A DNA stretch of 16,516 bases, taken from positions 1 through 16,516 of the forward strand of contig JAUYMO010000015.1 in NCBI GenBank assembly GCA_030699445.1, in the 5' to 3' direction. Shown here in pieces: positions 3,086 through 16,240 of this stretch. Both the position numbers and the translations under genes were made by a program. This DNA is from Candidatus Giovannonibacteria bacterium. Lineage in GTDB: Bacteria > Patescibacteriota > Minisyncoccia > UBA11713 > 2-01-FULL-45-33. How positions within the stretch are numbered: the first letter of the stretch is position 1; each line of letters starts with the position of its first letter. Below the pieces are notes generated by a model. The model made no database searches. It saw only the letters and a list, made by a program, of their open reading frames with translations, and was not told the DNA's origin.

Positions 3086-3124
3086 CAATTGGAAGTTTTG
3101 GCCGATTAATGCTACTATAAAAAT

Positions 3125-3379: not shown

Positions 3380-3393
3380 ACTTAAACATAAGG

Positions 3394-3464: not shown

Positions 3465-3526
3465 AAACAATAAATTATTATTTTGTCAAGATAGCGGAGC
3501 GGAGGAAGTTATGGTATTTTGGTTTT

Positions 3527-4078: not shown

Positions 4079-4082
4079 ACTT

Positions 4083-4439: not shown

Positions 4440-4472
4440 CTTAATTTGAAAAGGTCGTTTTTAATAAGTTAG

Positions 4473-4511
4473 AAAACCTCCCCCGCGGCGCGGGAGAGGT
4501 TTTCTTTTTTT
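4473..4511. terminator. Rho-independent terminator, probably bidirectional
   Basis: AAAACCTCCCCCGC-GG-GCGGGAGAGGTTTT forms a ~12-bp GC-rich stem with one mismatch. It is followed by TTTTCTTTTTTT on the + strand, and on the - strand it is preceded by an A-run and followed by TTTTCT. It lies 34 nt after the 4083-4439 stop, between convergent genes. Confidence 0.8.
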
Positions 4512-4735
4512 ACGGAGGCTTTCTTTATTTTAGATAGCACCATACTTTTGCTATCGCCGAAGTATGGTCATAAGAAGCAAGGTCACATCATTTTAATTTC
4601 GGTGTCTGTTTGAAAATATCCGAACGGAACTGGCTGGGCTCGGCGGGCGGAATTCCCCCCACACCCCCCTTCCGCCCGCCTCGCCTTGAACCGGAGCGGA
4701 AAGGACGATTTCAAGTTTTTCTTTGGCGTCAATAA

Positions 4736-5695
4736 CTAGGGATTCAAAGACAAATCAAACAACTGACGATTTTTCCCACCACTTGGGACATCCTCTCCCA
4801 GTCCAACCGCGATTGCTACTTTGCCTAACATTAAATCTGAAAATCTTGTATAAATGATTGCCCTTTGTCCCTGTTTATCGCTTAACACTCTCGGTTCAAT
4901 AATTTTGCCGACCTTGTCGTAATAAATATAACCCTTATTTTCCGCATAAGTGTAATCGTATTGTGTTCCACCTCTCAAATTTTCTTCTCGCTTTGCATAA
5001 CCTTCTACAAAATAAACTCCGTTGCAATTCGAGAAATCAAGTGATCTATAAGACGGATTGGGTTCTATCTGTGCCGGATCACAGTTAAGTATTAAGTCAT
5101 GCTTGTCAAAGAAAGTCATAAGTATCGGCTCCGCAGTAACACCCTCTTTACTATTGCCAAAACTTTCTCTTAAAACATAAAGTTTTTGTTCTGTTCTGCT
5201 GCTTGTATTGATTGCAAAAAGAGTGCGGAAACCGACTGAGGCCATGCCACCTGTATCTTCTAAAATTTCAATAAGAACCACATCTCCGTTTTTAAACAGA
5301 GAAATTTCCGGCTCCAGCGATGGTTGTTCATAATCTTTGATAATTTCTCGGATGTAATCCCCTGTCGATTTAAGTTCAATTTTGGTTTCTCCATTTTGTG
5401 TATGTTGGATTAAGAAAACCTTTTGACTATCAAAAACAAGATTTAGAGTTTCAAGTGGAGAAACGCTTGTGACCGCCGAACTCAAGACATAGGCATTATT
5501 CCCCGTCTGTAAAGTCTGCGATCCTACATCAGAAGTATTTTGAGTAGGCGGAGTCGTCGTAGTGGTTAATTTGGGTAAGAAAAAATACATACCAAATCCG
5601 ACTATAATGGCAGTTACTAAAACACTACTACCAATAACTAAAACAGGGTTATGATTTTTGATACTTACCTGTTGAGGCTCAAGATTCTGTTCCAT
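4736..5695 (-). CDS. Hypothetical membrane-anchored protein (N-terminal TM helix, Thr/Pro linker, ~250-aa extracytoplasmic domain)
   Basis: A 319-aa ORF with a TM segment (PVLVIGSSVLVTAIIVGFGMYFFL) followed by TTTTTPPTQNTS. I recognise no family motif. It is visibly more AT-rich than its neighbours. Confidence 0.6.
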   Translation of the reverse strand: MEQNLEPQQVSIKNHNPVLVIGSSVLVTAIIVGFGMYFFLPKLTTTTTPPTQNTSDVGSQTLQTGNNAYVLSSAVTSVSPLETLNLVFDSQKVFLIQHTQNGETKIELKSTGDYIREIIKDYEQPSLEPEISLFKNGDVVLIEILEDTGGMASVGFRTLFAINTSSRTEQKLYVLRESFGNSKEGVTAEPILMTFFDKHDLILNCDPAQIEPNPSYRSLDFSNCNGVYFVEGYAKREENLRGGTQYDYTYAENKGYIYYDKVGKIIEPRVLSDKQGQRAIIYTRFSDLMLGKVAIAVGLGEDVPSGGKNRQLFDLSLNP

Positions 5696-5719
5696 AAAAT
5701 TGATAGTTAGTTATTAATA

Positions 5720-5875
5720 TTATTTTACTAAATCTTCCATTGGAACGCCCAATGCTTTGGCAATTTTATTATATCATTTTTTGATTTCGGTTTTGGTGGC
5801 GATTCTCGCAAAAAGAAAAAAAACTAGAGCAACCATTTCGATTGCCCTAAAACTACAAGAACTTGTGAGGCTGGT
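5720..5875 (-). pseudogene. Probable remnant of an XRE-type helix-turn-helix gene (frame-disrupted)
   Basis: The minus strand reads ...ARIATKTEIKK-TGA-YNKIAKALGVPMEDLVK-TAA, with the stop at 5720-5722. KIAKALGV-x-x-x-D-L is the typical C-terminal helix of HTH_3/XRE domains. Upstream, the reading frame is broken by stops in all three frames. Confidence 0.3.
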
Positions 5876-6094
5876 TTACCGAATCTTCCCGTCTGCCGCG
5901 TCTTTCAGTAGCTGTTTGTATCCATCCAGCGGGAGTTGAATCCACGACTGCTCGTGGCACGTAGCACATTCAGAAAAAACCTCCCGCGTCTCATCTTTGG
6001 TCTGCAGCGGCAGAACAAATCGCCGAGAATGATCCAATTTCCCGCATATGTATGCCCCGCTCTGTTCATTCAGAAGTTGCTGTAATTCACTCAT
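5876..6094 (-). CDS. Hypothetical 72-aa Cys/His-containing protein (possible degenerate zinc-ribbon)
   Basis: The ORF has a strong Shine-Dalgarno sequence (AAGGAGGT, 5 nt before the ATG). It contains YICGKLDH and ECATCHE, a possible C/H...CxxC(H) knuckle pair. I recognise no family. Confidence 0.55.
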   Translation of the reverse strand: MSELQQLLNEQSGAYICGKLDHSRRFVLPLQTKDETREVFSECATCHEQSWIQLPLDGYKQLLKDAADGKIR

Positions 6095-6099
6095 TGCTT

Positions 6100-6107
6100 A
6101 CCTCCTT
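6100..6107 (-). promoter_or_regulatory. Shine-Dalgarno sequence (AAGGAGGT) of the 72-aa ORF
   Basis: The plus strand reads ACCTCCTT at 6100-6107, with a 5-nt spacer to the ATG (6094-6092 on the - strand). It is the strongest RBS I saw in the window. Confidence 0.6.
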
Positions 6108-6128
6108 GTCGCTTTTTGTACTGATAGA

Positions 6129-6157
6129 ACATTATCACACATTCATAAGCATTGCAA
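6129..6157 (-). promoter_or_regulatory. Candidate sigma-70-type promoter for the 72-aa ORF
   Basis: The minus strand has TTGCAA (6157-6152). It is followed either by a 17-nt spacer and TAATGT, or by an extended -10 TGTGATAAT (6139-6131). Confidence 0.35.
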
Positions 6158-6169
6158 TCTCAATCAAAC

Positions 6170-6195
6170 AAAAAACAGCGCGACGCTGTTTTTTT
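6170..6195. terminator. Bidirectional rho-independent terminator downstream of the tRNA-Lys/tRNA-Ser unit
   Basis: AAAAAACAGCG-CGA-CGCTGTTTTTTT is a perfect stem (AACAGCG/CGCTGTT) extended by A and T runs on both sides. On the - strand it follows the tRNA-Ser 3' end (6235) by ~40 nt. Confidence 0.75.
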
Positions 6196-6234
6196 AAATC
6201 AGTATATTTTTTTTACTCTTACAAAAAATAATTT

Positions 6235-6321
6235 CGGAGGTGGGAGGATTCGAACCTCCGATGCCGTTTCCAGCATACCGCTTTTCGAGAGCGGCGCCTT
6301 CAACCACTCAGCCACACCTCC
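6235..6321 (-). tRNA. tRNA-Ser (anticodon CGA), class II with a long variable arm
   Basis: The reverse complement has acceptor GGAGGTG/CACCTCC and anticodon stem CCGCT/AGCGG with loop CTCGAAA. The variable arm is ATGCTG-GAAA-CGGCAT and the T arm is GGAGG-TTCGAAT-CCTCC. The discriminator is G and no CCA is encoded. Confidence 0.9.
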
Positions 6322-6336
6322 ATTAAATTTTGCCTG

Positions 6337-6409
6337 TCCGCCCAGTAGGAGTTGAACCTACAACCTTGTCCTTAAGAGGGACCTGCTCTGCCAATTGAGC
6401 TATGGGCGG
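6337..6409 (-). tRNA. tRNA-Lys (anticodon CTT)
   Basis: The reverse complement has acceptor CCGCCCA/TGGGCGG, D arm GCTC-AATTGGCA-GAGC, anticodon loop CTCTTAA and T arm GTAGG-TTCAACT-CCTAC. The discriminator is A and no CCA is encoded. Confidence 0.85.
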
Positions 6410-6421
6410 TTTAATTTTTAG

Positions 6422-6449
6422 ATTATACATTTTTTGCCATAAAAATCAA
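6422..6449 (-). promoter_or_regulatory. Candidate promoter of the tRNA-Lys/tRNA-Ser unit
   Basis: The minus strand has TTGATT (6449-6444), a 16-nt spacer and a perfect TATAAT (6427-6422). The -10 box ends 12 nt before the tRNA-Lys 5' end. Confidence 0.5.
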
Positions 6450-6474
6450 AACATGCTAAGCTTTTTATATTCAA

Positions 6475-6951
6475 ATGAACCAGCTGATAAACTTATTCGC
6501 TAAATACGGTTTTTATTTTTTTCTGGGGCTTTTGGCGCTGGACGCGGCTATTTTGATTTGGATATTTTTCTTGCGCAAGAATTTCAGAAAAATTTTCGGC
6601 GGCTCTCCGGCAGATGGAGTGAATCTGGAAAAAGTTCTTTTGGAACTGCGGGACAACCAGAATATTTCTGCCGAAAATTTTGAGGAGCTGAAAAAAAGAG
6701 TAGAAGTTTTGGAAGAAGCTCTGCCGAAAAATTTAAGAAAAATCGGGCTCGTGAGATACAATCCTTTTTCCGATGCCGGCGGCGACCAAAGTTTCGCTCT
6801 GGCTTTGCTTAATGAAAAAAATGACGGCCTGATAATTTCATCGCTTTACGGCCGGGAAATGAACCGCGTTTACGCCAAGCCGATCGCGAACGGCGTTTCG
6901 CAATATCAATTAACGGACGAGGAAAAACAGGCGATACAAAATGCAAAGTAG
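6475..6951 (+). CDS. DUF4446 family protein (N-terminal TM helix)
   Basis: The C-terminal core VRYNPFSDAGGDQSFALALLNEKNDGLIISSLYGREMNRVYAKPIANGVSQYQLTDEEKQAI matches the DUF4446 signature as I know it (VRY-x-AF-x-D-x-GG-x-x-SF-S-x-ALLD ... R-x-YAK). Confidence 0.75.
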   Translation: MNQLINLFAKYGFYFFLGLLALDAAILIWIFFLRKNFRKIFGGSPADGVNLEKVLLELRDNQNISAENFEELKKRVEVLEEALPKNLRKIGLVRYNPFSDAGGDQSFALALLNEKNDGLIISSLYGREMNRVYAKPIANGVSQYQLTDEEKQAIQNAK

Positions 6952-8437
6952 ACCGCCAATCGTGGTAATAATGGGTCATATTGACCATGGCAAGACCACA
7001 CTTTTGGATTTTATCAGAAAATCCAGCGTCGCGGCTTCGGAAGCCGGAGGCATCACACAGCATATCGGCGCCTACGAAGTGGACCACGCCGGTAAAAAGA
7101 TAACTTTTTTGGACACGCCCGGGCATGAAGCTTTTTCTAAAATGCGCTCTAGGGGCGCCAAAGTCGCCGACATTGCTATTTTGGTTGTGGCAGCGGACGA
7201 CGGAGTGAAACCCCAAACCAAAGAAGCTTTAGAAACAATAAAAAATGCCGCGATTCCGTTCATGGTGGCGATTAATAAAATAGACAAGCCCGCGGCGGAT
7301 TTGGAAAAAGTAAAAAATGAACTGGCGGAACTCCAGGTTTTTTTGGAAGGAAGAGGAGGCAATGTTCCTTACGCGGAAATTTCCGCCAAACAGGGAACGG
7401 GGGTGGACCATCTTTTGGAAGTAATTTTACTTTTGGCAGAGATGGAAGAGATCACGGCCGACCCGAAAAGTTTCGCTTCCGGCTTGGTAATAGAATCGCA
7501 TAGGGACCCTAAAAGAGGCGTTACCTCAACCTTGCTTGTCATAAACGGCACGCTTAAAAAAGGGGAATACGTCGCGGCTGGGGAAGCCGTGGCTAAAGTA
7601 AAAATTTTGGAAAATTTCAAAGGCGAGGCGATGGATTCGGCGGGGCCGTCCCAGCCGGCGGTGGTTGTCGGCTTTGATAAAACTCCGCAGGTTGGAGCGG
7701 AATTTAAAACTTTCTTTTCGCAAAAAGACGCTTTGCTGGCTTCTTCAGCAGCGGTCGCGAAAAATGCGCTCTTGCCCGACTCCTCGAAACCTGGTTTTGA
7801 GGCTTCAAAAAAACCAGGTTTCTTCCCGTCGGGCGATTCCTTGGGCTTGGTTATAAAAACAGATGTTTTGGGCTCGGCAGAAGCGATTTCGCATGAAATA
7901 GAAAAATTGAAAAACGAAAAACTTAACCTTAAAATTTTGCGCTCCGGCGCCGGAGATTTGTCCGAAGACGATATTAAAATGGCGGCTTCATCCGCCCTGC
8001 CTTTAGCCATCGCTTTTAAAGTTGGGATTTCGGACTCCGCCCGGGAGCTGGCCCGGCGCATGGGGGTGGAGATTGCCGAGTTTGAAATTATTTATGACGT
8101 CGCCGATTTTTTAAAAAAGAAAATTGAAGCAGTTTTGCCCAAGGAAGAAAATAAAATTCTTTTGGGGCGCGCTAAAATTTTGAGGATTTTCCCAGCGAAA
8201 GCCGCCCCTGCAATGCGGGGGCAGATTATCGGCGGGAAAGTGTCGGAAGGAGTTTTGAAAAAAAGTGCCACTTTTGATATTTTACGCCGCGATAAAAAAA
8301 TCGGCGAAGGGAAAATTGAAAATCTGCAACAGGGGAAAATAAATGTTCCGGAGGTTCCGGCGGGCGGTGAATTCGGTGCGCTGGCGGGCGGAAAAATTTC
8401 AATAGCCGAAGGGGACGAATTGGAAATTTTTGAGTGA
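6941..8437 (+). CDS. infB: Translation initiation factor IF-2, short form that starts at the G domain
   Basis: The sequence RPPIVVIMGHIDHGKTTLLDFIR...ITQHIGAYEV...FLDTPGHEAFSKMRSRGAKVADIAILVVAADDGVKPQT...NKIDK supplies G1-G4. Domain II and the C-terminal domains follow (VIKTDVLGSAEAI..., IIYDVADFLKK). It overlaps DUF4446 by 11 nt and rbfA by 4 nt. Confidence 0.92.
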   Translation: MQSRPPIVVIMGHIDHGKTTLLDFIRKSSVAASEAGGITQHIGAYEVDHAGKKITFLDTPGHEAFSKMRSRGAKVADIAILVVAADDGVKPQTKEALETIKNAAIPFMVAINKIDKPAADLEKVKNELAELQVFLEGRGGNVPYAEISAKQGTGVDHLLEVILLLAEMEEITADPKSFASGLVIESHRDPKRGVTSTLLVINGTLKKGEYVAAGEAVAKVKILENFKGEAMDSAGPSQPAVVVGFDKTPQVGAEFKTFFSQKDALLASSAAVAKNALLPDSSKPGFEASKKPGFFPSGDSLGLVIKTDVLGSAEAISHEIEKLKNEKLNLKILRSGAGDLSEDDIKMAASSALPLAIAFKVGISDSARELARRMGVEIAEFEIIYDVADFLKKKIEAVLPKEENKILLGRAKILRIFPAKAAPAMRGQIIGGKVSEGVLKKSATFDILRRDKKIGEGKIENLQQGKINVPEVPAGGEFGALAGGKISIAEGDELEIFE

Positions 8438-8784
8438 TGGCGCATCAAATGCCCCACCAGCAAGAAAGATTCGCTTCGTTTTTAAGAAGAGAAATCGCCG
8501 GATTTCTCCAGCAAAACGCCTCGCGCGATGAAAACGTATTTATATCCGTAACCAGGGTTATTACAAAAGAGCGGTCGGACAAAGCCGAGGTTTTAATTTC
8601 CATTTTTCCGGATAAAAACGCGGACGCGATTTTTCACAACATAAAACGGCTGGAAAAAAGCGCCCGCAAATACATCGCTTCCCGTTCGCGCCGGCAGTTT
8701 ATCCCGCTGATTAAATTTGTTTTATACGGCGGAGACAAATCGGCGAACCTTGAAAATTTGCTGGAAAAAGTTAAAAATGAATAA
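8434..8784 (+). CDS. rbfA: Ribosome-binding factor A
   Basis: An ATGA overlap with infB gives the classic infB-rbfA order. The sequence is RbfA-like: RFASFLRREIAGFL...VFISVTRVITKERSDKAEVLISIF...LEKSARKYIASRSRRQFIPLIKFV. Confidence 0.8.
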   Translation: MMAHQMPHQQERFASFLRREIAGFLQQNASRDENVFISVTRVITKERSDKAEVLISIFPDKNADAIFHNIKRLEKSARKYIASRSRRQFIPLIKFVLYGGDKSANLENLLEKVKNE

Positions 8785-8804
8785 AGTGGTAAGTAAAATT
8801 TTTG

Positions 8805-8876
8805 AGGCCTGGGGGGGAATTGAACCCCCGTATAAGGGATTTGCAGTCCCTTGCCTTACCACTTGGCTACCAGGCC
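8805..8876 (-). tRNA. tRNA-Cys (anticodon GCA)
   Basis: The reverse complement has acceptor GGCCTGG/CCAGGCC, anticodon stem AGGGA/TCCCT with loop CTGCAAA, and T arm GGGGG-TTCAATT-CCCCC. The discriminator U is the Cys identity element. Confidence 0.9.
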
Positions 8877-8915
8877 ATATTCAAAATTTTACGTCGAAAT
8901 GCGATTAAAATCAAT

Positions 8916-8997
8916 GCCTCCGTGGCGGAAATGGCATACGCGCGGCGCTTAGGACGCCGTCCCGAAAGGGTTAGAGGTTCAAATCCTCTCGGAGGCA
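8916..8997 (+). tRNA. tRNA-Leu (anticodon TAG), class II
   Basis: The acceptor is GCCTCCG/CGGAGGC and the anticodon stem is CGGCG/CGCCG with loop CTTAGGA. The variable arm is CCC-GAAA-GGG, the T arm is AGAGG-TTCAAAT-CCTCT and the discriminator is A. Confidence 0.9.
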
Positions 8998-9003
8998 AAA
9001 ATC

Positions 9004-9074
9004 GCGGCCATGGTTTAGTGGTAGAACATGTCCTTGCCAAGGACAGGATGGGGGTTCGATTCCCCCTGGCCGCA
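9004..9074 (+). tRNA. tRNA-Gly (anticodon GCC)
   Basis: The acceptor is GCGGCCA/TGGCCGC and the anticodon stem is TGTCC/GGACA with loop TTGCCAA. The T arm is GGGGG-TTCGATT-CCCCC and the discriminator is A. Confidence 0.9.
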
Positions 9075-9111
9075 TAAAAATTAGGAAAATTTTTTTAAAC
9101 GTTTATATTTT

Positions 9112-9495
9112 ATGCTTTTAGTAAAAACAAAAATCGGACCGAGTAAGATAAATGGCATCGGGCTTTTCACAGATCAATTTATTCCAAAAGAAACTCTTGT
9201 GCAAAAATTTATGCCAGGATTTGATTTGGAGATTTCTGAGAATGATATACCAAACTTGTCCGAACCGGCGCGCGAACAATTTCTTAAATACGCTTATAAA
9301 AACAAGGGCGGATATTATATTCTTTGTTTTGATGATACTAGATTTCTTAATCATGCGGATAATCCAAATTTAATAAGCAATGATTCCGATGAAGAAATTG
9401 ATATTGCGGCTAGAGATATTCAAAAGGGAGAGGAACTCACGGTAAATTACAAAGAATTTGACACAGATTTTGATTACAAAATGGGCATTCATTGA
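9112..9495 (+). CDS. Minimal SET-domain protein (putative protein-lysine methyltransferase)
   Basis: The 127-aa product carries the three SET signatures. These are the GxG AdoMet loop (KINGIGLFT), RFLNHADNPN (the R-F-x-N-H-x-x-x-P-N pseudoknot motif) and GEELTVNY (the E-E-L-T-x-x-Y catalytic Tyr). Confidence 0.75.
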   Translation: MLLVKTKIGPSKINGIGLFTDQFIPKETLVQKFMPGFDLEISENDIPNLSEPAREQFLKYAYKNKGGYYILCFDDTRFLNHADNPNLISNDSDEEIDIAARDIQKGEELTVNYKEFDTDFDYKMGIH

Positions 9496-9533
9496 TTTGT
9501 GACTATGCCCGCTTTTGGTTGTTATTATAAAAT

Positions 9534-9833
9534 ATGCCTCAAAAAAGAATAACCGTCCGTGTTATGGGACGGGTGCAGATGGTGATGTTCCGGGATTTCG
9601 CCAAGAGAAAAGCGCGCGGTCTGGGGCTTATGGGATTTGTAAAAAATGACACCGACGGAAGCGTAAGAGTTGTTGCGGAAGGCGACGAGGAAGTTCTTAA
9701 GCGATTCATTGAATTATTGCGCGAAGGGCCTATTTTTGGTAAAGTAGAAAACATTATGGTTGATTGGGAAGAGCCGACTTTTGAATTTACTTCGTTTGAA
9801 ATTATTTACCCGCCTGCCGGTCGGGCAGGTTAA
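9534..9833 (+). CDS. acyP: Acylphosphatase
   Basis: The sequence ITVRVMGRVQMVMFRDFAKRKARGLGLMGFVKNDTDGSVRVVAEGDEEVLKRFIELLREGP matches the acylphosphatase pattern V-x-G-x-V-Q-G-V-x-F-R...L-G-L-x-G-W-V-x-N-x-x-D-G-x-V. The loop Gly is replaced by Met. Confidence 0.8.
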   Translation: MPQKRITVRVMGRVQMVMFRDFAKRKARGLGLMGFVKNDTDGSVRVVAEGDEEVLKRFIELLREGPIFGKVENIMVDWEEPTFEFTSFEIIYPPAGRAG

Positions 9834-9851
9834 AAACAAATTTTCGCGGTT

Positions 9852-10520
9852 ATGAATTGCATCGGCATTATTATGGACGGCAACCGGCGGTGGGCGAAAG
9901 AAAAAAACCTTCCGCAGTTCGCGGGGCACGAAGCAGGTTACCAAAAATTTTTGGAAGTTATGGGATGGGCGCGCGACGCGAGCATCCGCAATTTAATTGT
10001 CTACGCGTTTTCCACAGAAAACTGGAACCGCCCCGAGGAAGAAGTTTCATATCTAATGAAGCTGATTGAGAGAATTATTGAAGAGCGCGCCCAAAAAATC
10101 GCGGAAGAAAAGGCGCGGGTTAAATTTATTGGAGAGCTGGATAAATTCCCGGAACGCGTCAGAAAAAGCATGAAAGAGCTTGAAGAAAAAACGGCGATGT
10201 TTAAAGATTACACATTGGGCATCGCGGTTAATTACGGAGGAAGAGCGGAAATCCTATCCGCTATAAAGCGCCTCCCGCAAAATATTACGCAAAATTTAAC
10301 CGAAGAAGAATTTTCAAAATATTTATGGACAGGCGACTTTCCGGAACCGGAACTGATTATTCGCACGGGCGGGCAAAAACGGCTTTCTAATTTTCTTTTA
10401 TGGAAAGCCGCCTATTCCGAACTTTATTTTACCGATACCTATTGGCCGGCTTTTTCCAAAGAGGAATTTTTGTCAGCGATAAATTTTTTCGCAGAAACCA
10501 AGCGCAATTTCGGAAAATAA
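9852..10520 (+). CDS. uppS: Isoprenyl transferase (undecaprenyl-diphosphate synthase family)
   Basis: Family motifs are present: IGIIMDGNRRWAKEKNLP...GHEAG...VYAFSTENWNRPEEEVSYLM...IRTGGQKRLSNFLLWKAAYSELYFTDTYWPAF. Confidence 0.92.
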   Translation: MNCIGIIMDGNRRWAKEKNLPQFAGHEAGYQKFLEVMGWARDASIRNLIVYAFSTENWNRPEEEVSYLMKLIERIIEERAQKIAEEKARVKFIGELDKFPERVRKSMKELEEKTAMFKDYTLGIAVNYGGRAEILSAIKRLPQNITQNLTEEEFSKYLWTGDFPEPELIIRTGGQKRLSNFLLWKAAYSELYFTDTYWPAFSKEEFLSAINFFAETKRNFGK

Positions 10521-10532
10521 AAATTTACTATA

Positions 10533-10614
10533 TGCCGCCGGTGGGAGTTGAACCCACACCCCTTGCGGGACACGATCTTAAGTCGTGCGCGTATGCCAGT
10601 TTCGCCACGGCGGC
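10533..10614 (-). tRNA. tRNA-Leu (anticodon TAA), class II
   Basis: The reverse complement has acceptor GCCGCCG/CGGCGGC and anticodon stem CACGA/TCGTG with loop CTTAAGA. The variable arm is CCC-GCAA-GGG, the T arm is GTGGG-TTCAACT-CCCAC and the discriminator is A. Confidence 0.9.
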
Positions 10615-10635: not shown

Positions 10636-12174
10636 TTATATTATTAGGAAAGCCCACCAAGGGGTTTTTTCGCTGATGACCTCGCCGGTTTCGGCGTTAA
10701 TAAAAAGTTCAACTTCCATTTTGGCCGGTATTAAAAACAAAATTCTTGCGCGCTTCTCTACTTTTACTTCATAAAAATGATTGTTAAAAGCAGGCTTAAT
10801 ATCTGTGATTGAAACAAAGTTTTTATTTTCCAGAAGTTTTTGCGAAATTTCAGATTCAGTTTTAATCACAAGAGGTTTTATTTTAACATCTTCTGTTTTT
10901 GGCAGCTCGGTTTGGATTTTTTGAATTGGCGAGATTGGGAGTGGCGCCGGAGGCGAAGGAATTATGGTTTTAGCTGAAGGCGTTGGGGAGGTTTGTTTTG
11001 CGGCTGGCGCCGGCAGCGTTGTCGGCATTGGCGCAGGAGGGGCAACGGGTGGAATGACTGGCGGAGTGATGGGAGCCGTGGCAGCCGCAGCCGGAGGCTT
11101 TATCACAATGGTTATGCTTTTCCCGCGCGTTGCGTCATAAGTCCCGGCAGTTTTTGAAGGAAACAGGGAGATATTCACCGCCTGATTGGTTTGGCTTTTA
11201 TTTTGAAAATAGAGTTTTAAATTGCCGTTCGCTGTTAAAGAATCGCTAAAAGCCAGTTTGTCGCAAGGCAAAATAGAGCTCGGATTTTTTGATGATGTTG
11301 CCGAAACAGATTCAACGCAGAATATGCTGATATTAGCCCCCTTAGCATTAGTTGTTGCCCAATTCAAAGTTACGGGCTCGCCGTAATTTGCCAATGTTGT
11401 TGAAGCTGCAAAATAAGTTACCTCCGGATCCGGCAATATATCGGAAGCAATGGTTACGGTAATATTCGCGGCGTGCGTCGCGTCGTAACTTTTTGGAGAG
11501 ATAGCCGGCAGCAAGGTAAATTGCAGAGGAACGGCTTCGGTTAAGGAATTATAAAAATTTAAAGCCAAAGTTCCCGAAGGCGCGAGGTCGCTTGTAAAAA
11601 CCGGTTTTCCGCAGGGCATGGTTCCGGTAAATGAAGCGGAAGTAACACGGATTCCTTCTTTGCATTCAATTTGCAGATTAACTCCGTCAACGCCCGCGGC
11701 GGATTGCCATGATAAAACCGCCGGTTTTTCAGGCAGTGTGGTTTCTGGAGAAGCGGAAAATTTTATAATCGGCTGGGCGAGAGCCGCTACTGCCAATGTC
11801 GCGTCTTTGCTTCCGGCGCCATAATCTTGGCCCGATGCGTTTTTCGGCGTAAGCGTAGCGGTTATAACGCGGGAAAACCCCGATGTATTATAAACATAAA
11901 AAGTGAGCAGGTCGTTGACTTTAGCGGTAGTTGAAATTTTATTGCCGCAGCTGAACGCGCTTCCGCTGAAATATTTAAATTTAATGCCTGTGTAGCATGG
12001 AATTATAAATGAATATCCTCCGGCTTCCTGCAATTGCCAGGCGAAGCTCGCGACATCTCCGGAAGCAATGGAGGCGGGAGAGACAACAAAAGTGGTAACG
12101 GAAGGATTTTGAGCGAAAGCGAAAAACGGCAGCGCGAATAATGTAAAAAGCGCGATTTTTAGCGCGAGCTTCAT
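10636..12174 (-). CDS. Secreted surface protein: signal peptide, three Ig-like repeats, Pro-rich linker and a PepSY-like C-terminal domain
   Basis: The signal peptide is MKLALKIALFTLFALPFFAFA|QNP. Three ~105-aa repeats (aa 25-129, 135-242, 250-358) each have a conserved W, two Cys and a terminal (Y)DAT...I/V-x-I. A ~58-aa P/A/T-rich linker follows. The C-terminus FYEVKVEKRARILFLIPAKMEVELFINAETGEVISEKTPWW resembles PepSY (YEV...D/N-A-x-T-G-E-V). Confidence 0.8.
   Translation of the reverse strand: MKLALKIALFTLFALPFFAFAQNPSVTTFVVSPASIASGDVASFAWQLQEAGGYSFIIPCYTGIKFKYFSGSAFSCGNKISTTAKVNDLLTFYVYNTSGFSRVITATLTPKNASGQDYGAGSKDATLAVAALAQPIIKFSASPETTLPEKPAVLSWQSAAGVDGVNLQIECKEGIRVTSASFTGTMPCGKPVFTSDLAPSGTLALNFYNSLTEAVPLQFTLLPAISPKSYDATHAANITVTIASDILPDPEVTYFAASTTLANYGEPVTLNWATTNAKGANISIFCVESVSATSSKNPSSILPCDKLAFSDSLTANGNLKLYFQNKSQTNQAVNISLFPSKTAGTYDATRGKSITIVIKPPAAAATAPITPPVIPPVAPPAPMPTTLPAPAAKQTSPTPSAKTIIPSPPAPLPISPIQKIQTELPKTEDVKIKPLVIKTESEISQKLLENKNFVSITDIKPAFNNHFYEVKVEKRARILFLIPAKMEVELFINAETGEVISEKTPWWAFLII
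11101..12102 (-). repeat. Three tandem ~105-codon intragenic repeats (Ig-like modules) within the 512-aa gene
   Basis: Unit starts align as VTTFVVSPASIASGDVASFAW / IIKFSASPETTLPEKPAVLSW / VTYFAASTTLANYGEPVTLNW. Unit ends align as SKDATLAV / SYDATHAANITVTI / TYDATRGKSITIVI. The Cys pairs are C60/C76, C171/C188 and C286/C304. Confidence 0.65.
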
Positions 12175-12181
12175 GCCGGCG

Positions 12182-12493
12182 CTAGGACGGAGTTAAAATC
12201 GGAGTCAAATTTTGGCTTGGGCAAGACGAGGTAAAAGGAAGAAGAGACGGACTGGTTCCGAAAACAGTCCTGTAAATCGCGAACACAAGTCCCCACATCG
12301 CCAGCATCACAAAAAGCCCGAAAAGTCCGTAGGTAATGTATTTTCTTCCTTGCCCGACTTTCTTTTCGTCCTCGCCGGCAATGACGTATTGTATCACTCC
12401 CCATAAAAAAACAAGAGTGGCAACAATAAACAAAAGACTGGTCAATTGTTTTATCACGACTACGATATTGCAGATTATTGTTGAGACAGTCAT
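12182..12493 (-). CDS. VirB2/TrbC-like two-helix mini-pilin paralogue (P4, no signal peptide)
   Basis: The core is LLFIVATLVFLWGVIQYVIAGEDEKKVGQGRKYITYGLFGLFVMLAMWGLV, read as helix, charged A-G-x-D-E loop, G-K, then a G-L-x-G-L helix. It starts 2 nt after the P3 stop. The tail is rich in Ser, Pro and Thr. Confidence 0.7.
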   Translation of the reverse strand: MTVSTIICNIVVVIKQLTSLLFIVATLVFLWGVIQYVIAGEDEKKVGQGRKYITYGLFGLFVMLAMWGLVFAIYRTVFGTSPSLLPFTSSCPSQNLTPILTPS

Positions 12494-12495
12494 AT

Positions 12496-12759
12496 TTATT
12501 TAAAGAAATTTTTTAATATTGTGATGATTGCTTCAACGGAAATCATAATTAAAAGCCCCAGCAACCCCCAAATCATATGGCTTTTTCCTTTTGTCCGCGC
12601 GTCTTCATTTGCGGCTCCGGCGATAAACTCCACCACGCCGTAAAGAAATACCACCGCGCCCAAAACCAAAAGCAAATAAGTAATCGGGTCTAAAATGGAT
12701 TGCTGAATGGTTTTGATTAAATCGTCAACTGTTCTGGCGTATGCTACGGCAATCATCAC
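12496..12759 (-). CDS. VirB2/TrbC-like two-helix mini-pilin paralogue (P3, vestigial signal-peptide end)
   Basis: The core is YLLLVLGAVVFLYGVVEFIAGAANEDARTKGKSHMIWGLLGLLIMISV. The N-terminus MMIAVAYA|RTVDD aligns with the last residues of the P2 signal peptide (LFAYA|ADV), but the rest of that peptide is missing. Confidence 0.7.
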   Translation of the reverse strand: MMIAVAYARTVDDLIKTIQQSILDPITYLLLVLGAVVFLYGVVEFIAGAANEDARTKGKSHMIWGLLGLLIMISVEAIITILKNFFK

Positions 12760-12771
12760 TTTGTTTTAGAA

Positions 12772-13128
12772 TTAAGGCGATGGCGGCACATCTCCAGGGC
12801 CAGGCGGTATAACTCCTCCCCCTACTCCGAATTGGGAAACCAGCGCGCGGACCACTCCCCAGATGGCTACCATAAGGAAAAGGCCTATCAGCCCGAAAAT
12901 TATAAAGCTCTTGCCCTCTTTCAATTTGTCTTCGTCACCGCCCGCGGTAATGTATCTGATAACGCCCCAAAGAAAGACAATGGTGGCGATAATCATCAAT
13001 ATGGGAATAATCCGGTTCAAAATGATTTGCGTTTGGTAAAGGATTGAAATCACATCCGCGGCGTAGGCGAAAAGTGGCGCCAGCAATGCCGCGGAAACAG
13101 AAATTTTAACCAGTGTTTTTATGTTCAT
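12772..13128 (-). CDS. VirB2/TrbC-like two-helix mini-pilin paralogue (P2, with signal peptide)
   Basis: The signal peptide is MNIKTLVKISVSAALLAPLFAYA|AD. The core is ILMIIATIVFLWGVIRYITAGGDEDKLKEGKSFIIFGLIGLFLMVAIWGVV. The tail is Gly/Pro-rich (GVGGGVIPPGPGDVPPSP). Confidence 0.75.
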   Translation of the reverse strand: MNIKTLVKISVSAALLAPLFAYAADVISILYQTQIILNRIIPILMIIATIVFLWGVIRYITAGGDEDKLKEGKSFIIFGLIGLFLMVAIWGVVRALVSQFGVGGGVIPPGPGDVPPSP

Positions 13129-13196
13129 AGATATATAATACTATTAATTTTAATTTTATACGACCTTTTATAATTTTTTAACCTATATTTATAATA

Positions 13197-13538
13197 TCAC
13201 AGCTTGCCCGCGAAATCTATAACGGCGGTGGCGAGGGCGGACGCTCCCACCAAAATAGCCGTGCCTAAAATCGTCCAGTAAAATGTGTCTTTGGCTGTTG
13301 TTAATTGCTTTTCATCGCCTCTCGCGGTCACAAAAAGCAGCCCCGCGTAAATCAGAAAAACCGTCGCTATCGGAAGGCCTATTTTGGTAACCAAATCCGC
13401 GAATTTCTGGACCACCTGTTGGAAGCTGGATGTGCTCCCGAGCGGATTTGGAAAAGTTTCGGCTGAAGCCAAAAACGGCAGAAATATTAAGGCCGGAAGC
13501 AAAGAAAAAATGAAGGTTTTTATTTTGTTTATCCGCAT
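13197..13538 (-). CDS. VirB2/TrbC-like two-helix mini-pilin paralogue (P1, with signal peptide)
   Basis: The signal peptide is MRINKIKTFIFSLLPALIFLPFLASA|ETFPNPLG. The core is GLPIATVFLIYAGLLFVTARGDEKQLTTAKDTFYWTILGTAILVGASALA. Confidence 0.7.
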   Translation of the reverse strand: MRINKIKTFIFSLLPALIFLPFLASAETFPNPLGSTSSFQQVVQKFADLVTKIGLPIATVFLIYAGLLFVTARGDEKQLTTAKDTFYWTILGTAILVGASALATAVIDFAGKL

Positions 13539-13552
13539 GGATTTATTATAAC

Positions 13553-14416
13553 TTATTTTAATGGAAAAGAAACATGGATATGATTAGTAGGCGACTTGCA
13601 ATTGTTTACCGGGGCTCCTCCTTGCGACTCGCAACGCGCGACCCCGCCGAATGAAGAAGAAGAAACTTTTGCCAGAAGGACGAGAAAAGCGCCCTGTGAT
13701 TTATTGTTTTGTGCCGGCACAATATCCACTACCGGTTGCCCCGGACCATGAGTTTGGTGGCCGGCTTCCGTTCCGCCTGTAACCACAAACGGACAAACAT
13801 TCCAGCACTCCGTTTGTAATTGGATAAGTTTTGTTGCAACATATTTTGGCAATCCTTTTAGGCTTGTGCAGGTAGTAGCTTGCTGGGTGGGGCAATCGCC
13901 TTTATTGATTGGAACTCCATTGTTGAGCAAAAGCTGTCTGGCTTCTTCGTCCGTCTGAAAAACATCTCCGGCTGGTGGTTTTTCTGTGATGGGCGGAATA
14001 ATTGGCGTAATCGGAGTGTCAATCGGCTTCTTGCAGTCTTGTATTTTTTGCCAGGCGAAAGTGGGCGAGCCCGAAACCAAAGTGTTTATGATGGTATCCA
14101 CTATCAGCCAGCCGCCGAAAGCAATGAAAATTCCGACGATTGAAGATGTGATAACTTTTTTGCCAGTTTCAATGCGATTTGGATTTCCGGCGCTGGTTGC
14201 CCAGACAATTCCGCCGATGAGAAGCGCGAGTACCAAAACCGGAAACGCCAGACCGGTCAGCGGTTTTACTAAAAAATCCACGATGTTTTTTGCCAAAGTC
14301 CAAAGGTCGCATGGCGTGCAATATTCCCCTTTGCCCAAACCGCAAGTTACAAGGCCGTCCGCCGCGAACGCCGGAAAGGCAAGAAATAAAAGATTAAAAA
14401 TTAAAAATTTTTTCAT
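13553..14416 (-). CDS. Fusion protein: signal peptide, pilin-like two-helix module, Pro/Thr/Ile linker and a Cys/His-rich C-terminal globular domain
   Basis: I place the start at MKKFLIF (ATG 14416-14414). This forms an ATGA overlap with the stop of the upstream solute-binding gene, whereas the track start at 14539 would overlap that gene by 127 nt. The N-terminal module is AFA|ADGLVTCGLGKGEYCTPCDLWTLAKNIVDFL...LIGGIVWATSAGNPNRIETGKKVITSSIVGIFIAFGGWLIV. The linker is PIDTPITPIIPPITEKPP. The C-terminal ~137 aa have 7 Cys plus VTGGTEAGHQTHGPGQPVVDI and a terminal NHIHVSF. Confidence 0.75.
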   Translation of the reverse strand: MKKFLIFNLLFLAFPAFAADGLVTCGLGKGEYCTPCDLWTLAKNIVDFLVKPLTGLAFPVLVLALLIGGIVWATSAGNPNRIETGKKVITSSIVGIFIAFGGWLIVDTIINTLVSGSPTFAWQKIQDCKKPIDTPITPIIPPITEKPPAGDVFQTDEEARQLLLNNGVPINKGDCPTQQATTCTSLKGLPKYVATKLIQLQTECWNVCPFVVTGGTEAGHQTHGPGQPVVDIVPAQNNKSQGAFLVLLAKVSSSSFGGVARCESQGGAPVNNCKSPTNHIHVSFPLK

Positions 14417-15699
14417 ATTGCTTGGAGCCTGGCTTTGGCTTTTTCCAATGAATCCCGCAGGGTGAACCTCCCCACGGCCATGTCTTCTATTAAAGTCCTG
14501 AAAATTTGGTCGGTAAGCGCGGGGTCGGGATTTGGCCAAAGTTTAAGCGCCAAAACCGAATTCGCGAAAACCGAGCGCGTAGATTCTTTTTGATAAACCG
14601 GCAGGACATCGCGCCGAAGGGAAACATTTCCGGTTTTATCCGCGTAACTTGCCGAATTTTCCGCGCTTGATAAAAATTGTATGAATTGCCAGGCCTGCGT
14701 TTGGTTGCGCGACGCTTTTGGCACGGCCAGGGCGAAAATTTCCCCGCCGGTTACGGGGCGCGCGGCGCCGGCTAATTGCGGTAAAAGCGCTGCGGAAAAA
14801 GACAGGTGCGCGTTTTTATTTTTTATTTCATTGTATTCCGAAATTTTACCGAAATACATGGCAAGTTTGCCATTTGTAAAAGCGTCTTGTGCTTCGGGCA
14901 ACGCGCTAGACCAGCTTTGTGAATTTTTTTTGGGATTCGCGAAATCGGTTATGAATTGCAGGGAAGATTCAGCGGGGTGCAAAGTAACCTCGCCGATGTT
15001 TATTGGTTCGTTCAGCGCGACTTCTCCCGAATCGTTTATAATTTTTTCTCCGGATTGCAAAAAAAGCGTTGTTAAAATAAGCGGTGCGTTTTCTATATTT
15101 CCCGCCCGGCCCAGAGCCGCGCCGGATATGACGATATTTCCTGAAGAATCTTTTTTTGTGAGCTTCGCGGCGACGTTTAAAAATTCATCCCAGGTTTTGG
15201 GAGGCGAAGCGATGAAATCTTTTGTGAAAAGGTCGTTATTTATAAAAAGCGCCAAGGGGTCGGCATAAAACGGAACACCGATAACTTCTTTTTTCGCGCC
15301 TAGAAACGCCGAGGCCGCTTCAACATATTGCTGGCTGATTTCCCGTTCGGTAAATAAAATCGCGGGAGCAGTTGAGAGCTTGTCTTTGTGTTTTTTAAGA
15401 AAATCGGAAGGGAAAACGACAATGTCCGGTGCTTCGCCGCGGGCGATGGCGTTTAAAAAATCGCTTTCAAAATTCGCGATATCTTTTTTTGAATATTTCA
15501 CGTCAAAATTTTGATGGGCCTCGGCGTATTTTAAAACCAAATCTCTTACGGCGCCCTCGTCGCCAAACCCCCACATAGTAATGCTCGCTCCGCCCTCTCC
15601 GCCGGTTTTTAATCCGGGCACGATTCCGGTAACGATTAAAACGGCTATGACCACTATAACGATTGCCCCTCCTATTATTATGATTTGCAGTTTGTTCAT
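14413..15699 (-). CDS. Extracellular solute-binding protein (ABC-type, family 1-like) with an N-terminal membrane anchor
   Basis: The TM anchor is IIIIGGAIVIVVIAVLIVTGIV. The SBP_bac_1/8-like pattern includes ITMWGF...APDIVVFPSDFL...VIGVPFYADPLALFINNDLF...PPKTWDEFLNVAAKLTKKD...GKLAMYFG...ALLPQ...TGGEIFALAVPKASRNQTQAWQFIQFLSS. Confidence 0.8.
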   Translation of the reverse strand: MNKLQIIIIGGAIVIVVIAVLIVTGIVPGLKTGGEGGASITMWGFGDEGAVRDLVLKYAEAHQNFDVKYSKKDIANFESDFLNAIARGEAPDIVVFPSDFLKKHKDKLSTAPAILFTEREISQQYVEAASAFLGAKKEVIGVPFYADPLALFINNDLFTKDFIASPPKTWDEFLNVAAKLTKKDSSGNIVISGAALGRAGNIENAPLILTTLFLQSGEKIINDSGEVALNEPINIGEVTLHPAESSLQFITDFANPKKNSQSWSSALPEAQDAFTNGKLAMYFGKISEYNEIKNKNAHLSFSAALLPQLAGAARPVTGGEIFALAVPKASRNQTQAWQFIQFLSSAENSASYADKTGNVSLRRDVLPVYQKESTRSVFANSVLALKLWPNPDPALTDQIFRTLIEDMAVGRFTLRDSLEKAKARLQAI

Positions 15700-15706
15700 G
15701 CTGATT

Positions 15707-16240
15707 TTATTTATTAAAAATTAATCCGTAATGATGGCTTCCGGCGGAAAATTCTTTATAAAAAGAAAAGCCTGCGCTTGTTAAAATTGTTTTGGCTTCA
15801 TCTTTTCCGACGCGGTGGTCCATGGAAGGCCCGCCTAAGGATGAATCTTCGCTCCATTCCACCGCCATCAAGCTTCCGCCTTTCCGCAAAATCCGATAGG
15901 CCTCCTGGGCGACGGCGTTTTTATTTTGTGCTTGGAAAAGGATATTTGAAATTAAAACCTTATCAATGCTTTCGTCACGGATGCCGGAACCCCTAGGCAT
16001 CTCAAGGTCCGCCCGCTGGGGCTCAATATTAAAAAGATGGAATAATTTTATTTTGGCGCGTGTCGCCTCCAAAGCTTCAGGACGGATATCCAAAGCGTAA
16101 ATTTTGCCGTTGGGCCCGACGCGCTGGCCCAAAGGCACGGAAAAAAAACCCGCCCCGCACCCAAAATCGGCGATTTTCTCGCCCGGCCTCACGTCCCAGA
16201 CATCAATCGCTTCTTCAGGATTTAAAAACAAATCTGCCAT
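15707..16240 (-). CDS. Class I SAM-dependent methyltransferase
   Basis: Motif I is KIADFGCGAGFFS, the post-I acidic residue is in IYALDI, and a Methyltransf_11-like block follows (IDKVLISNILFQ...AYRILRKGGSLMAVEW). Confidence 0.8.
   Translation of the reverse strand: MADLFLNPEEAIDVWDVRPGEKIADFGCGAGFFSVPLGQRVGPNGKIYALDIRPEALEATRAKIKLFHLFNIEPQRADLEMPRGSGIRDESIDKVLISNILFQAQNKNAVAQEAYRILRKGGSLMAVEWSEDSSLGGPSMDHRVGKDEAKTILTSAGFSFYKEFSAGSHHYGLIFNK

Follow-up and report, generated by a model that had tools for sequence, protein, structure and literature searches.

The gene cluster between ftsZ and tRNA-Leu(taa) on a Candidatus Giovannonibacteria contig is probably (roughly 60%) the pilin-array module of a Patescibacteria-type T4SS, a system derived from the monoderm MPF-FATA class, encoded away from the virB4 core genes. 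The window analysed is the whole 16,516-bp contig of this MAG (Table 1). All nine spacings given for a tight, co-oriented minus-strand unit in a preliminary description were reproduced exactly from ORF coordinates and tRNA positions: 15 nt between ftsZ and the methyltransferase (MTase) gene, 7 nt between MTase and the solute-binding protein (SBP) gene, -4 nt between SBP and fusion, 14 nt between fusion and P1, an AT-rich 68 nt between P1 and P2, 12 nt between P2 and P3, 2 nt between P3 and P4, 7 nt between P4 and the 512-aa gene, and 21 nt from the latter to tRNA-Leu(taa). The negative spacer reflects an ATGA at 14413-14416, in which the SBP stop overlaps the fusion start codon (ATG 14416, in agreement with the NCBI and Logan gene calls). 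The P3 start is ambiguous (GTG 12759 or ATG 12756); the ATG, consistent with the 86-aa Logan gene call, widens the P2/P3 spacer to 15 nt.

Table 1 Features of the co-oriented block, with positions in the window
Feature	Position	Strand	Evidence or remarks
tRNA-Leu(taa)	10533..10614	-	ARAGORN and Rfam; downstream boundary of the block
512-aa secreted protein	10636..12174	-	three repeats, Pro-rich linker, weak PepSY-like end
P4, 103-aa leaderless pilin	12182..12493	-	T4SS_pilin 33.8 bits; Ser/Thr/Pro-rich C-terminal tail
P3, 86/87-aa pilin	12496..12759	-	T4SS_pilin 37.4 bits; no recognisable signal peptide
P2, 118-aa pilin	12772..13128	-	T4SS_pilin 34.2 bits; signal peptide, Gly/Pro-rich C-terminal tail
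P1, 113-aa VirB2/TrbC-like pilin	13197..13538	-	TrbC 45.1 bits, T4SS_pilin 44.5 bits; signal peptide
Pilin-peptidase fusion, 287 aa	13553..14416	-	T4SS_pilin 32.0 bits, TrbC 26.3 bits
Fusion C-terminal domain, aa 150-287	13556..13969	-	predicted extracytoplasmic zinc peptidase, Hedgehog/DD-peptidase (LAS, M15-like) fold
SBP, 428 aa, MalE/sugar type (SBP_bac_1/8)	14413..15699	-	Pfam; N-terminal transmembrane anchor
Class I SAM-dependent methyltransferase, 177 aa	15707..16240	-	Methyltransf_31/25/11, E 5e-17 to 7e-14

Profile searches bore out the earlier proposal that the small proteins are VirB2/TrbC-type hairpins. Indeed, all five hairpins, including that of the fusion, exceeded the PF18895 (T4SS_pilin) gathering score of 26.6 bits, P1 also passed the cut-off of TrbC/VirB2 PF04956 with the fusion just under it, and the common core motif described for the five products was seen in their alignments. 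Identity among these paralogues is 19-29%, far below the 44-94% of positional orthologues (P1, 44-79%; P2, 58-85% in Giovannonibacteria-type loci; P3, 53-94%; P4, 48-79%). The five hairpins are anciently diverged VirB2-like proteins, each with conserved orthologues of its own, an argument that the paralogues differ in structural role. They resemble the VirB2/TrbC/TraA pilins of diderm T4SSs (PF04956) in their signal peptide, two hydrophobic helices and short charged loop. In contrast to diderm systems, the host is monoderm, VirB5, VirB7, VirB9 and VirB10 are missing, there are five divergent paralogues, two of them leaderless, instead of a single major pilin, and there is no evident sign of a cyclase or acetylase (TraF/TraX). 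The absence of signal peptides from P3 and P4 speaks against the T4SS reading.

The fusion is composed of a signal peptide, a Cys motif (C25, C33, C36), a hairpin (~aa 48-115), a Pro-rich linker (~aa 130-150) and the C-terminal domain. Its hairpin is VirB2-like, T4SS_pilin being matched by 20/20 fusion homologues, and the AF2 model places helices at 35-50, 57-73 and 79-115. The C-terminal half, whose nature the preliminary description overlooked, is predicted from sequence and its AF2 model (pLDDT 89, pTM 0.85) to be an extracytoplasmic LAS/M15-type zinc peptidase. The metal-binding residues H223, D231, H279 and H281 are invariant across the 20 homologues and follow the H-x7-D ... H-x-H motif of LAS zinc peptidases (Hedgehog N-terminal domain, VanX/VanY/VanXY, Peptidase_M15_3 endolysins), with 'HGPGQPVVDI' and 'NHIHV' in the fusion and 'HYEGRAVDI' in Shh. 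These peptidases were also the best fold and profile matches: the domain profile matched Hedgehog N-terminal domains over the HxxGxAVDI motif (E 0.003-0.01), and Foldseek ranked Hedgehog N domains best (probability 0.89-0.96, with unrelated chains interspersed) and VanXY D,D-peptidases at a much lower probability (0.23-0.41), with weak E-values of 0.003 or higher. In the viral library, the top matches include 'Peptidase', M15A and M15B entries. Moreover, one fusion homologue combines a pilin with Peptidase_M15_3 (P0024, E 3e-8) and another a pilin with VanY (L065:7639-8610, E 4e-5). The window's own domain matched none of the Pfam and PHROG peptidase models, and hhalign gave no significant alignment to a certified M15_3 domain; compared with LAS zinc peptidases it is too divergent for any Pfam M15 model, is Cys-rich and has one more residue in the H-D spacer, and its activity is putative.

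This peptidase is probably a VirB1-like wall hydrolase. VirB1 and the Gram-positive T4SS hydrolases (TraG of pIP501, PrgK of pCF10, TcpG, and the lysozyme SEML1_0006 in Southlakia epibionticum) are likewise extracytoplasmic peptidoglycan hydrolases that accompany T4SS parts as presumed wall openers. Enzymes of this class are lytic transglycosylases, CHAP domains or lysozymes, whereas the putative enzyme here is predicted to fold as a Hedgehog/M15-type zinc peptidase and is part of the same polypeptide as a pilin hairpin, to which it is tethered. No description of a pilin hairpin tethered to a LAS peptidase was found in the searched literature.

The SBP matches SBP_bac_8 (E 9e-32) and SBP_bac_1 (E 2e-28), and among solved chains the oligosaccharide-binding MBP1 (4r9f, E 1.5e-18) is nearest, ahead of maltose/sugar SBPs. 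It shares the full-length SBP_bac_1/8 fold with Cluster-B sugar SBPs (MalE, UgpB, mannooligosaccharide MBP1 4r9f) and sits outside the cell on a membrane anchor, as in monoderms. It differs from them in that no permease or ATPase gene adjoins it, in its translational coupling to a pilin gene and in belonging to a high-scoring subfamily of its own, found together with pilin arrays. In SBP-anchored metagenome loci, pilin ORFs directly follow 43/48 high-scoring SBP homologues and 0/9 low-scoring, ordinary ones, several of which have two polytopic permease-like ORFs in that place. Ten of ten sampled distant pilin ORFs matched PF18895, seven above the gathering score. The SBP-pilin coupling reaches far beyond the window's genus, a reach that had been overlooked. 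The high-scoring SBPs form what looks to be a new, distinct membrane-anchored MalE-like subfamily, tied to pilin arrays and lacking adjacent permease genes. The main texts of PMC12102498 and PMC10633639 do not mention solute-binding or substrate-binding proteins, the S. epibionticum supplementary tables (PMC10633639) contain no PF13416 or PF01547 protein, and we came across no account of a dedicated sugar-type binding protein encoded almost always just upstream of pilins.

The gene order is conserved: MTase, SBP, fusion and four pilins are kept in every genome locus with a Giovannonibacteria-type fusion and in 10/10 GTDB-species loci. The loci with this order are L002-L007, L009 and, for the GTDB species, L015-L024, Ryanbacteria and Tagabacteria among them. 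The MTase is the first gene of this cassette and lies directly upstream of SBP in 10/10 GTDB loci and L002-L009. In streamlined CPR genomes, strong synteny conservation can inflate apparent functional linkage. It is conceivable that the SBP, and the MTase, are housekeeping neighbours joined to the pilins by inherited synteny only, the SBP feeding a sugar ABC importer encoded elsewhere. The SBP sequence matches are full-length and ordinarily MalE-like, CPR gene order is strongly kept around ftsAZ and infB, and the upstream partner varies, being MTase in 31/52 high-scoring SBP loci of the metagenome set and NTP_transferase elsewhere (L061, L076, L077, probably L081). However, SBP-pilin adjacency is kept down to ~25-30% SBP identity and in differing surroundings (ftsZ, gyrA, dnaA-dnaN, T4P genes), the start/stop overlap of the two genes recurs across loci, and the lower-scoring SBPs have an SBP-permease-permease layout and never pilins. 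Coincidental adjacency is therefore improbable.

The 512-aa protein behaves differently. Its three putatively Ig-like internal repeats of ~110 aa are real (alignment z-scores against shuffles of 18.8, 6.1 and 4.3) and its Pro-rich linker stands, but the claimed PepSY-like end falls under the cut-off (20.6 vs 24 bits); PG_binding_1 occurs in 16/22 homologues. It adjoins the array only in the window (L001), L006 and L007, does not follow the array in L002, L004/5 or L015-L024, and has homologues in L010-L012 that lie apart from any pilin gene. Contrary to the initial view of an adhesin belonging to the cassette, it is a lineage-specific downstream neighbour.

Searches of the window's proteins turned up no VirB4, VirD4, VirB6, PilB, sortase or relaxase family, as reported before. 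No syntenic locus has a secretion ATPase within 10 kb, and none of roughly 60 loci has a T4SS ATPase within 6-10 kb. The preliminary description derived from this an autonomous surface fibre of SBP, pilins and 512-aa adhesin that needs no T4SS. The tight, co-oriented spacing of the genes would agree with such a fibre. However, the adhesin does not share the conservation of the array, and every characterised VirB2-family pilus that we know of requires VirB4 and VirB6 for pilin extraction. In 1,948 VirB4-positive Patescibacteria assemblies with PF18895/PF04956 pilins, these lie near virB4 in 1,135 and away from it in ~40% (PMC12102498). Part of Table S1 of that paper lists VirB4 for 22/24 Giovannonibacteria genomes and for 7/9 cassette-bearing draft relatives, the latter set including neither the window's MAG nor the complete, cassette-bearing genome CP066687.1; the two drafts listed without VirB4, which would favour autonomy, are incomplete (486 kb and 740 kb). 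Because virB4 is often encoded far from pilins and VirB4 is listed for 7/9 of these relatives, a self-contained cluster is unlikely, and the autonomous fibre with its adhesin is highly improbable. Nor is the system uncharacterised as a class, as had been proposed: 441 pilin arrays of 2-11 genes with mean identity of ~25% occur in 383 assemblies (PMC12102498), and one such array is essential in S. epibionticum (PMC10633639). The window's array resembles these T4SS arrays (PMC12102498; SEML1_0014-0019, PMC10633639) in its tandem PF18895/PF04956 hairpins, five here against 2-11, its paralogue identity, its Patescibacteria genome and its lack of a relaxase. It differs in lying >10 kb from any virB4, whereas the S. 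epibionticum array is inside the T4SS cluster, in the dedicated SBP and MTase ahead of it, and in the fusion of its first member to a LAS peptidase.

Another reading is that the hairpins never polymerise and serve as a membrane-display scaffold anchoring extracellular modules (peptidase, fn3-like domains, Pro/Gly tails), which together with the SBP would make up a patch facing the host, where wall is digested and nutrients are captured. In related loci, many hairpins of the arrays are joined to further domains, such as a C-terminal LAS/VanY or, in L053, N-terminal fn3/PhoD_N-like extensions, and there are products of 209-584 aa; the lack of a nearby T4SS ATPase fits as well. To our knowledge, pili have never been seen in Patescibacteria, and PMC12857230 speaks only of the 'potential to elaborate conjugative pili'. 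On the other hand, P1-P4 are bare 86-118-aa hairpins that have nothing to display, the hairpins share homology with true subunits of pili (TrbC/VirB2; P1, 45 bits), and the S. epibionticum array is essential along with its T4SS. We consider a display scaffold rather unlikely.

Under the preferred T4SS reading, each of the five hairpins would be membrane-inserted with both ends outside and the short charged loop inside, and a distal VirB4/VirB6 machine would extract them for polymerisation into a heteromeric pilus or a stalk that resembles one. The zinc peptidase on its Pro-rich tether would cut peptidoglycan peptide stems at the assembly site, in the role of VirB1; alternatively, carried on the filament, it may cut the host's wall. 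The SBP may work with the filament, either aiding assembly or docking outside the cytoplasm or serving as a receptor for host-derived glycan or muropeptide cargo; its role is conjectural because no T4SS known to us uses an SBP. The MTase, presumably cytoplasmic because it has no signal peptide, may also have a role. Tandem VirB2-like pilin arrays are known in Patescibacteria and are ascribed to a VirB4-based T4SS (Wang 2023, PMC10633639; Quinonero-Coronel 2025, PMC12102498), and three features look new: the SBP-pilin coupling, the pilin-zinc-peptidase fusion and the conserved orthologues of each pilin paralogue.

The window spans a complete 16,516-bp contig of a Candidatus Giovannonibacteria MAG (locus tags Q8Q46_). 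Its right end cuts off ftsZ; this gene and all those that follow as far as tRNA-Leu(taa) lie on the minus strand, and the spacers recorded in the preliminary description from ftsZ to tRNA-Leu (15, 7, -4, 14, 68, 12, 2, 7 and 21 nt) proved exact. The contig proteins are deposited at NCBI as MDP3934771-77. The start of P3, the third of four small pilins, is ambiguous between GTG at 12759 (87 aa) and ATG at 12756 (86 aa), the latter being the public gene call. A scan for consensus promoters and terminators returned counts at or below the shuffle expectation and did not set the operon boundaries.

Features of the methyltransferase-SBP-pilin cassette and its downstream neighbours (SBP, solute-binding protein; P1-P4, small pilins)
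Feature	Coordinates	Strand
Methyltransferase	15707-16240	-
SBP	14413-15699	-
Pilin-peptidase fusion, 287 aa	13553-14416	-
P1	13197-13538	-
P2	12772-13128	-
P3	12496-12759	-
P4	12182-12493	-
512-aa protein	10636-12174	-
tRNA-Leu(taa)	10533-10614	-

Elsewhere in the window, a secreted CAP/SCP-domain protein (225-1103; PF00188, E 6e-15) has a long Gln/Asn/Ala-rich, coiled-coil-like C-terminal region. The GC content is 0.39-0.40 at 4500-6500 versus 0.44-0.49 elsewhere, and this low-GC region contains a 319-aa membrane-anchored protein that matches no family, at 4736-5695, and a Cys-containing ORF of 72 aa, at 5876-6094. Eight tRNA genes, single or paired, are spread over 3014-10614, and IF-2 (6941-8437) is short at 498 aa. 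A 127-aa SET-domain protein is encoded at 9112-9495; a SET-domain gene (9514-9882) also lies near the homologue of the 512-aa protein in L010, a Sungbacteria-like locus.

Profile searches supported the pilin relationship proposed for the small proteins. The fusion and P1-P4 scored 32.0, 44.5, 34.2, 37.4 and 33.8 bits, respectively, against PF18895 (T4SS_pilin), all five above the Pfam gathering cut-off of 26.6 bits, and P1 also reached 45.1 bits on TrbC/VirB2 (cut-off 27.9 bits); in NCBIfam, the pilins matched the Mycoplasma ICE pilin-like family below threshold only. The shared core motif of the preliminary description was recovered in all five hairpin modules. The helical hairpin, with two hydrophobic helices and a short charged loop, is visible in the pilin-core alignments (A3 and A4), and the AF2 model of the fusion places its helices at 57-73 and 79-115. 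By eye, the fusion, P1 and P2 start with signal-peptide-like leaders (a hydrophobic core ending in AxA), and P3, P4 and their orthologues start without one. With five genes at 19-29% pairwise identity, the tandem set agrees with the Patescibacteria VirB2 pilin arrays of PMC12102498 (at least two tandem, low-identity pilins).

Exact-protein look-ups traced fusion homologues to CP066687.1, a closed genome of 651,549 bp with the array at 154-175 kb, to MFIJ01000016, to JBGGHG010000026 and to one distant genome. The order methyltransferase-SBP-fusion-four pilins was present in all four, including the distant genome, where fusion identity is down to 32%. When GTDB was scanned with one genome for each species, 10 loci were obtained, with six Giovannonibacteria, a Parcubacteria bin, Ryanbacteria, Tagabacteria and two MAGs labelled Saccharibacteria as hosts, and tblastn found the seven cassette genes in identical order wherever the contig was long enough, two of the contigs (L023 and L024) ending within the array. 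P1, P2, P3 and P4 are 79%, 85%, 94% and 79% identical to their counterparts in the genome locus L006, and 54%, 74%, 55% and 67% identical to those in CP066687.1. Since each pilin resembles its positional orthologues much more closely than its paralogues, the five pilin genes are, judging from sequence comparison, old and individually maintained paralogues. Antigenic variation was considered for the window's array and rejected in view of how well the orthologues at each position are conserved; the separate conservation of five paralogues points to a heteromeric structure rather than to the antigenic-variation idea offered so far.

Array size and surroundings differ among lineages. The Ryanbacteria array is expanded to about 7 pilin genes (L022:11122-13656), two metagenome lineages (L076 and L081) have 8-9, and Giovannonibacteria are constant at 5. 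At L025:8130-9493, the SBP is followed by two separate, consecutive genes, one for a Cys-motif pilin of 149 aa and one for a pilin-peptidase fusion of 304 aa, and the methyltransferase gene is found some 5 kb further downstream. The reverse-strand genes downstream in L009 and L025 showed no conservation between the two loci. Serine recombinase genes adjoin pilin or fusion genes in two contexts (L013/L014 and L021:12503-13843), and in L019 an ORF for a reverse transcriptase (RVT_1; 11737-13161) is found close to the array.

All 20 fusion homologues match T4SS_pilin, and their alignment shows invariant H223, D231, H279 and H281, the H...D...H metal-ligand pattern of LAS/M15 peptidases, together with the hairpin residue G95. 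In the 12 closer homologues, C25, C33 and C36, which precede the first helix, and C128, which follows the second, are also invariant. One of the 20, the distant homologue P0024, additionally matches Peptidase_M15_3 (E 3e-8), and the second gene after the SBP in the metagenome locus L065 combines T4SS_pilin with VanY, the latter just under the cut-off (E 4e-5). The window's own C-terminal domain gave no Pfam or PHROG peptidase match, and hhalign against the M15_3 domain of P0024 returned a probability of 2%; its profile aligned to Hedgehog N-terminal domains in the PDB across HxxGxAVDI (E 0.003-0.01). The domain was modelled alone, because the full-length fusion model gave histidine-kinase matches that were spurious products of the helical hairpin. 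The resulting model was confident (pLDDT 89, pTM 0.85). Its fold resemblance to solved LAS members is tentative: Foldseek ranked Hedgehog N domains best (probability 0.89-0.96), with unrelated chains among them, and VanXY D,D-peptidases lower down (0.23-0.41), and the viral library yielded matches including proteins named peptidase, M15A and M15B.

Close relatives alternate between two variants of the C-terminal peptidase domain at the same place in the fusion (alignment A1). The genome loci L006 and L007 have GDHxxNSDHYQGxAADL...THLHF versus GHQTHGPGQPVVDI...NHIHV in the window, with SBPs about 91% identical, which indicates a domain swap at a fixed position. We infer from the sequence a topology with a signal peptide, the N-terminus outside, the charged loop inside and the C-terminus outside, so that the putative peptidase would stand on the outer side of the membrane, held by a Pro-rich tether of about 20 residues. 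Pilin termini face the filament exterior in F-pilus structures and in F-pilin epitope display, so a C-terminal passenger domain is sterically plausible. Array members of 371-584 aa at L053:7354-8469, L057:9818-11140 and L061:9002-10756 have the hairpin at or near the C-terminal end after a long N-terminal extracellular region; that of L053 shows weak fn3- and PhoD_N-like matches, and the hairpin thus appears to be a carrier for other domains too. A less likely rival reading takes the hairpins as a non-filament display scaffold; the passenger domains speak for it and the TrbC/VirB2 homology against it.

As proposed in the preliminary description, the SBP is a membrane-anchored ABC-type solute-binding protein. 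Along its full length it is a sugar SBP of the MalE kind, and it has a membrane anchor at the N-terminus; it matches SBP_bac_8 and SBP_bac_1 (E 9e-32 and 2e-28) and sugar SBPs in the PDB down to E 1.5e-18. A metagenome scan anchored on the SBP, not on the pilins, gave 80 loci (L026-L105), whose ORFs were searched with HMMs built from the pilin and SBP alignments. One to nine pilin ORFs lay within 1.2 kb after the SBP in 43 of the 48 high-scoring loci (at least 250 bits and at least 500 bp of downstream sequence), typically with a gap of -3 to about 60 nt, and none of nine lower-scoring SBP homologues was followed by pilins. The distant pilin ORFs sampled all matched PF18895 (10/10), seven of them above the gathering score. 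No permease or ATPase gene adjoins the SBP of the window; permease-like pairs followed low-scoring homologues only, multi-transmembrane permease-like ORFs coming next in L094, L096, L098 and L104 in the classical ABC layout.

In 31 of 52 loci, the gene immediately before the SBP encodes the methyltransferase. By Pfam, NTP_transferase replaces it in L061, L076 and L077, and L081 has an ORF there that corresponds in size only. This sugar nucleotidyltransferase has 288-299 aa in the more distant SBP-pilin loci, and L077 reads dnaA-dnaN-NTP_transferase-SBP-seven pilins. Mere inherited adjacency of the cassette genes is a less probable rival explanation. Solute- or substrate-binding proteins are not mentioned in the main text of PMC12102498 or PMC10633639, the supplementary tables on Southlakia epibionticum contain no PF13416 or PF01547 protein, and literature searches on SBP-pilin coupling found nothing. 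Two findings offer useful leads that can be tested: the widespread coupling of the SBP to pilins and the fusion of a pilin to a peptidase.

The 512-aa protein had been described as a tip or adhesin with three repeats and a PepSY-like end. The three repeats are real, and the PepSY-like end matches PepSY below threshold (20.6 bits, cut-off 24; E 5.8e-4); the C-terminus reads ...WWAFLII, without LPXTG. The protein follows the array only in the window (L001), L006 and L007, and the three homologues with contexts read have no pilin neighbours. The expected gene order held from the methyltransferase to the fourth pilin but not for the 512-aa gene. PG_binding_1 is found in 16 of its 22 homologues, and we treat the protein as a variable wall-associated neighbour, not a tip adhesin.

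Family searches of the window's proteins bore out the statement that conjugation, type IV pilus and sortase machinery is missing from it: none matched N_methyl, T2SSE or sortase families, as a type IV or sortase-assembled pilus locus would require, or VirB4, coupling protein or relaxase families, as a canonical conjugation locus would. VirB4-, VirD4- and VirB6-like ORFs were likewise found neither within 10 kb of the cassette in L002-L009 and L015-L025 nor within 6 kb in the 80 metagenome loci. The large Walker-A ORFs in the flanks were IF-2, FtsH, LeuRS, DnaA, a DEAD-box helicase and a PilB-like protein, none of them VirB4, and the contexts of the distant fusion homologues P0021, P0019, P0024 and P0023 contained no T4SS genes. 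Type IV pilus genes lie beside the SBP-pilin array in two metagenome loci, encoding N_methyl and PilX_N minor-pilin-like proteins at L076:1283-5070 and a PilB-like T2SSE ATPase at L038:6788-8548.

The preliminary description read the cluster as an autonomous fibre, an unlikely rival that would suit a locus devoid of secretion genes; to our knowledge, every characterised VirB2-family pilus requires VirB4 and VirB6. Table S1 of PMC12102498 lists VirB4 for 7 of the 9 draft genomes with the cassette that were matched by name and, among the rows consulted, for 22 of 24 Giovannonibacteria. Given VirB4 in relatives and this requirement for VirB4 and VirB6, the economical reading is that these pilins form a distal module for a T4SS whose genes lie elsewhere in the genome. 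The earlier observation is confirmed, and its interpretation is only partly supported.

Pilins of PF18895/PF04956 have been catalogued over 3,035 Patescibacteria genomes; 1,948 VirB4-positive assemblies have pilins, near virB4 in only 1,135, and 441 arrays have 2-11 genes each with a mean identity of 25% (PMC12102498). The six-gene array of S. epibionticum (SEML1_0014-0019) is essential and lies within the T4SS cluster (PMC10633639), whereas the cassette here has no virB4 within 10 kb of the array in the loci examined. According to a 2025 review, potential pili occur in no monoderm T4SSs other than these (PMC12857230). The role of the Patescibacteria T4SS and its pilin arrays has been called "completely unknown" in reviews, though the system is essential for epibiotic growth (PMC11665869). 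Because such arrays have been catalogued and are essential in S. epibionticum, the class of the object is already known, and within this phylum a pilin array is nothing unusual.

Under the distal-module reading, five distinct VirB2-like hairpins would sit in the membrane, and a distal VirB4/VirB6 machine would build them into a heteromeric pilus-like structure. The first subunit would bring its putative LAS peptidase to the site, where it may cut wall peptide cross-links, in function a counterpart of VirB1, or perhaps attack the host wall. More speculatively, the translationally coupled SBP might cooperate with the structure, either by helping in assembly or docking or by receiving cargo. A bolder reading, to which we give roughly one chance in eight, makes the SBP-coupled array a nutrient-harvesting organelle: the tethered peptidase would open either the host wall or that of the cell itself, the VirB2-like filament would form a bridge to the host, and the dedicated, permease-less SBP would take glycan or muropeptide cargo at the filament base. 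If this were true, the T4SS of Patescibacteria, essential but enigmatic, would gain a role in import, and the SBP would be the first candidate for its substrate receptor. Most Patescibacteria with pilins have no recognisable VirB1 (PMC12102498), a puzzle that the pilin-peptidase fusion may answer. Moreover, the SBP, so regularly found with pilins, is a concrete, clonable handle on the T4SS, and its ligand or its pilin contacts could tell whether the apparatus serves export, adhesion or import.
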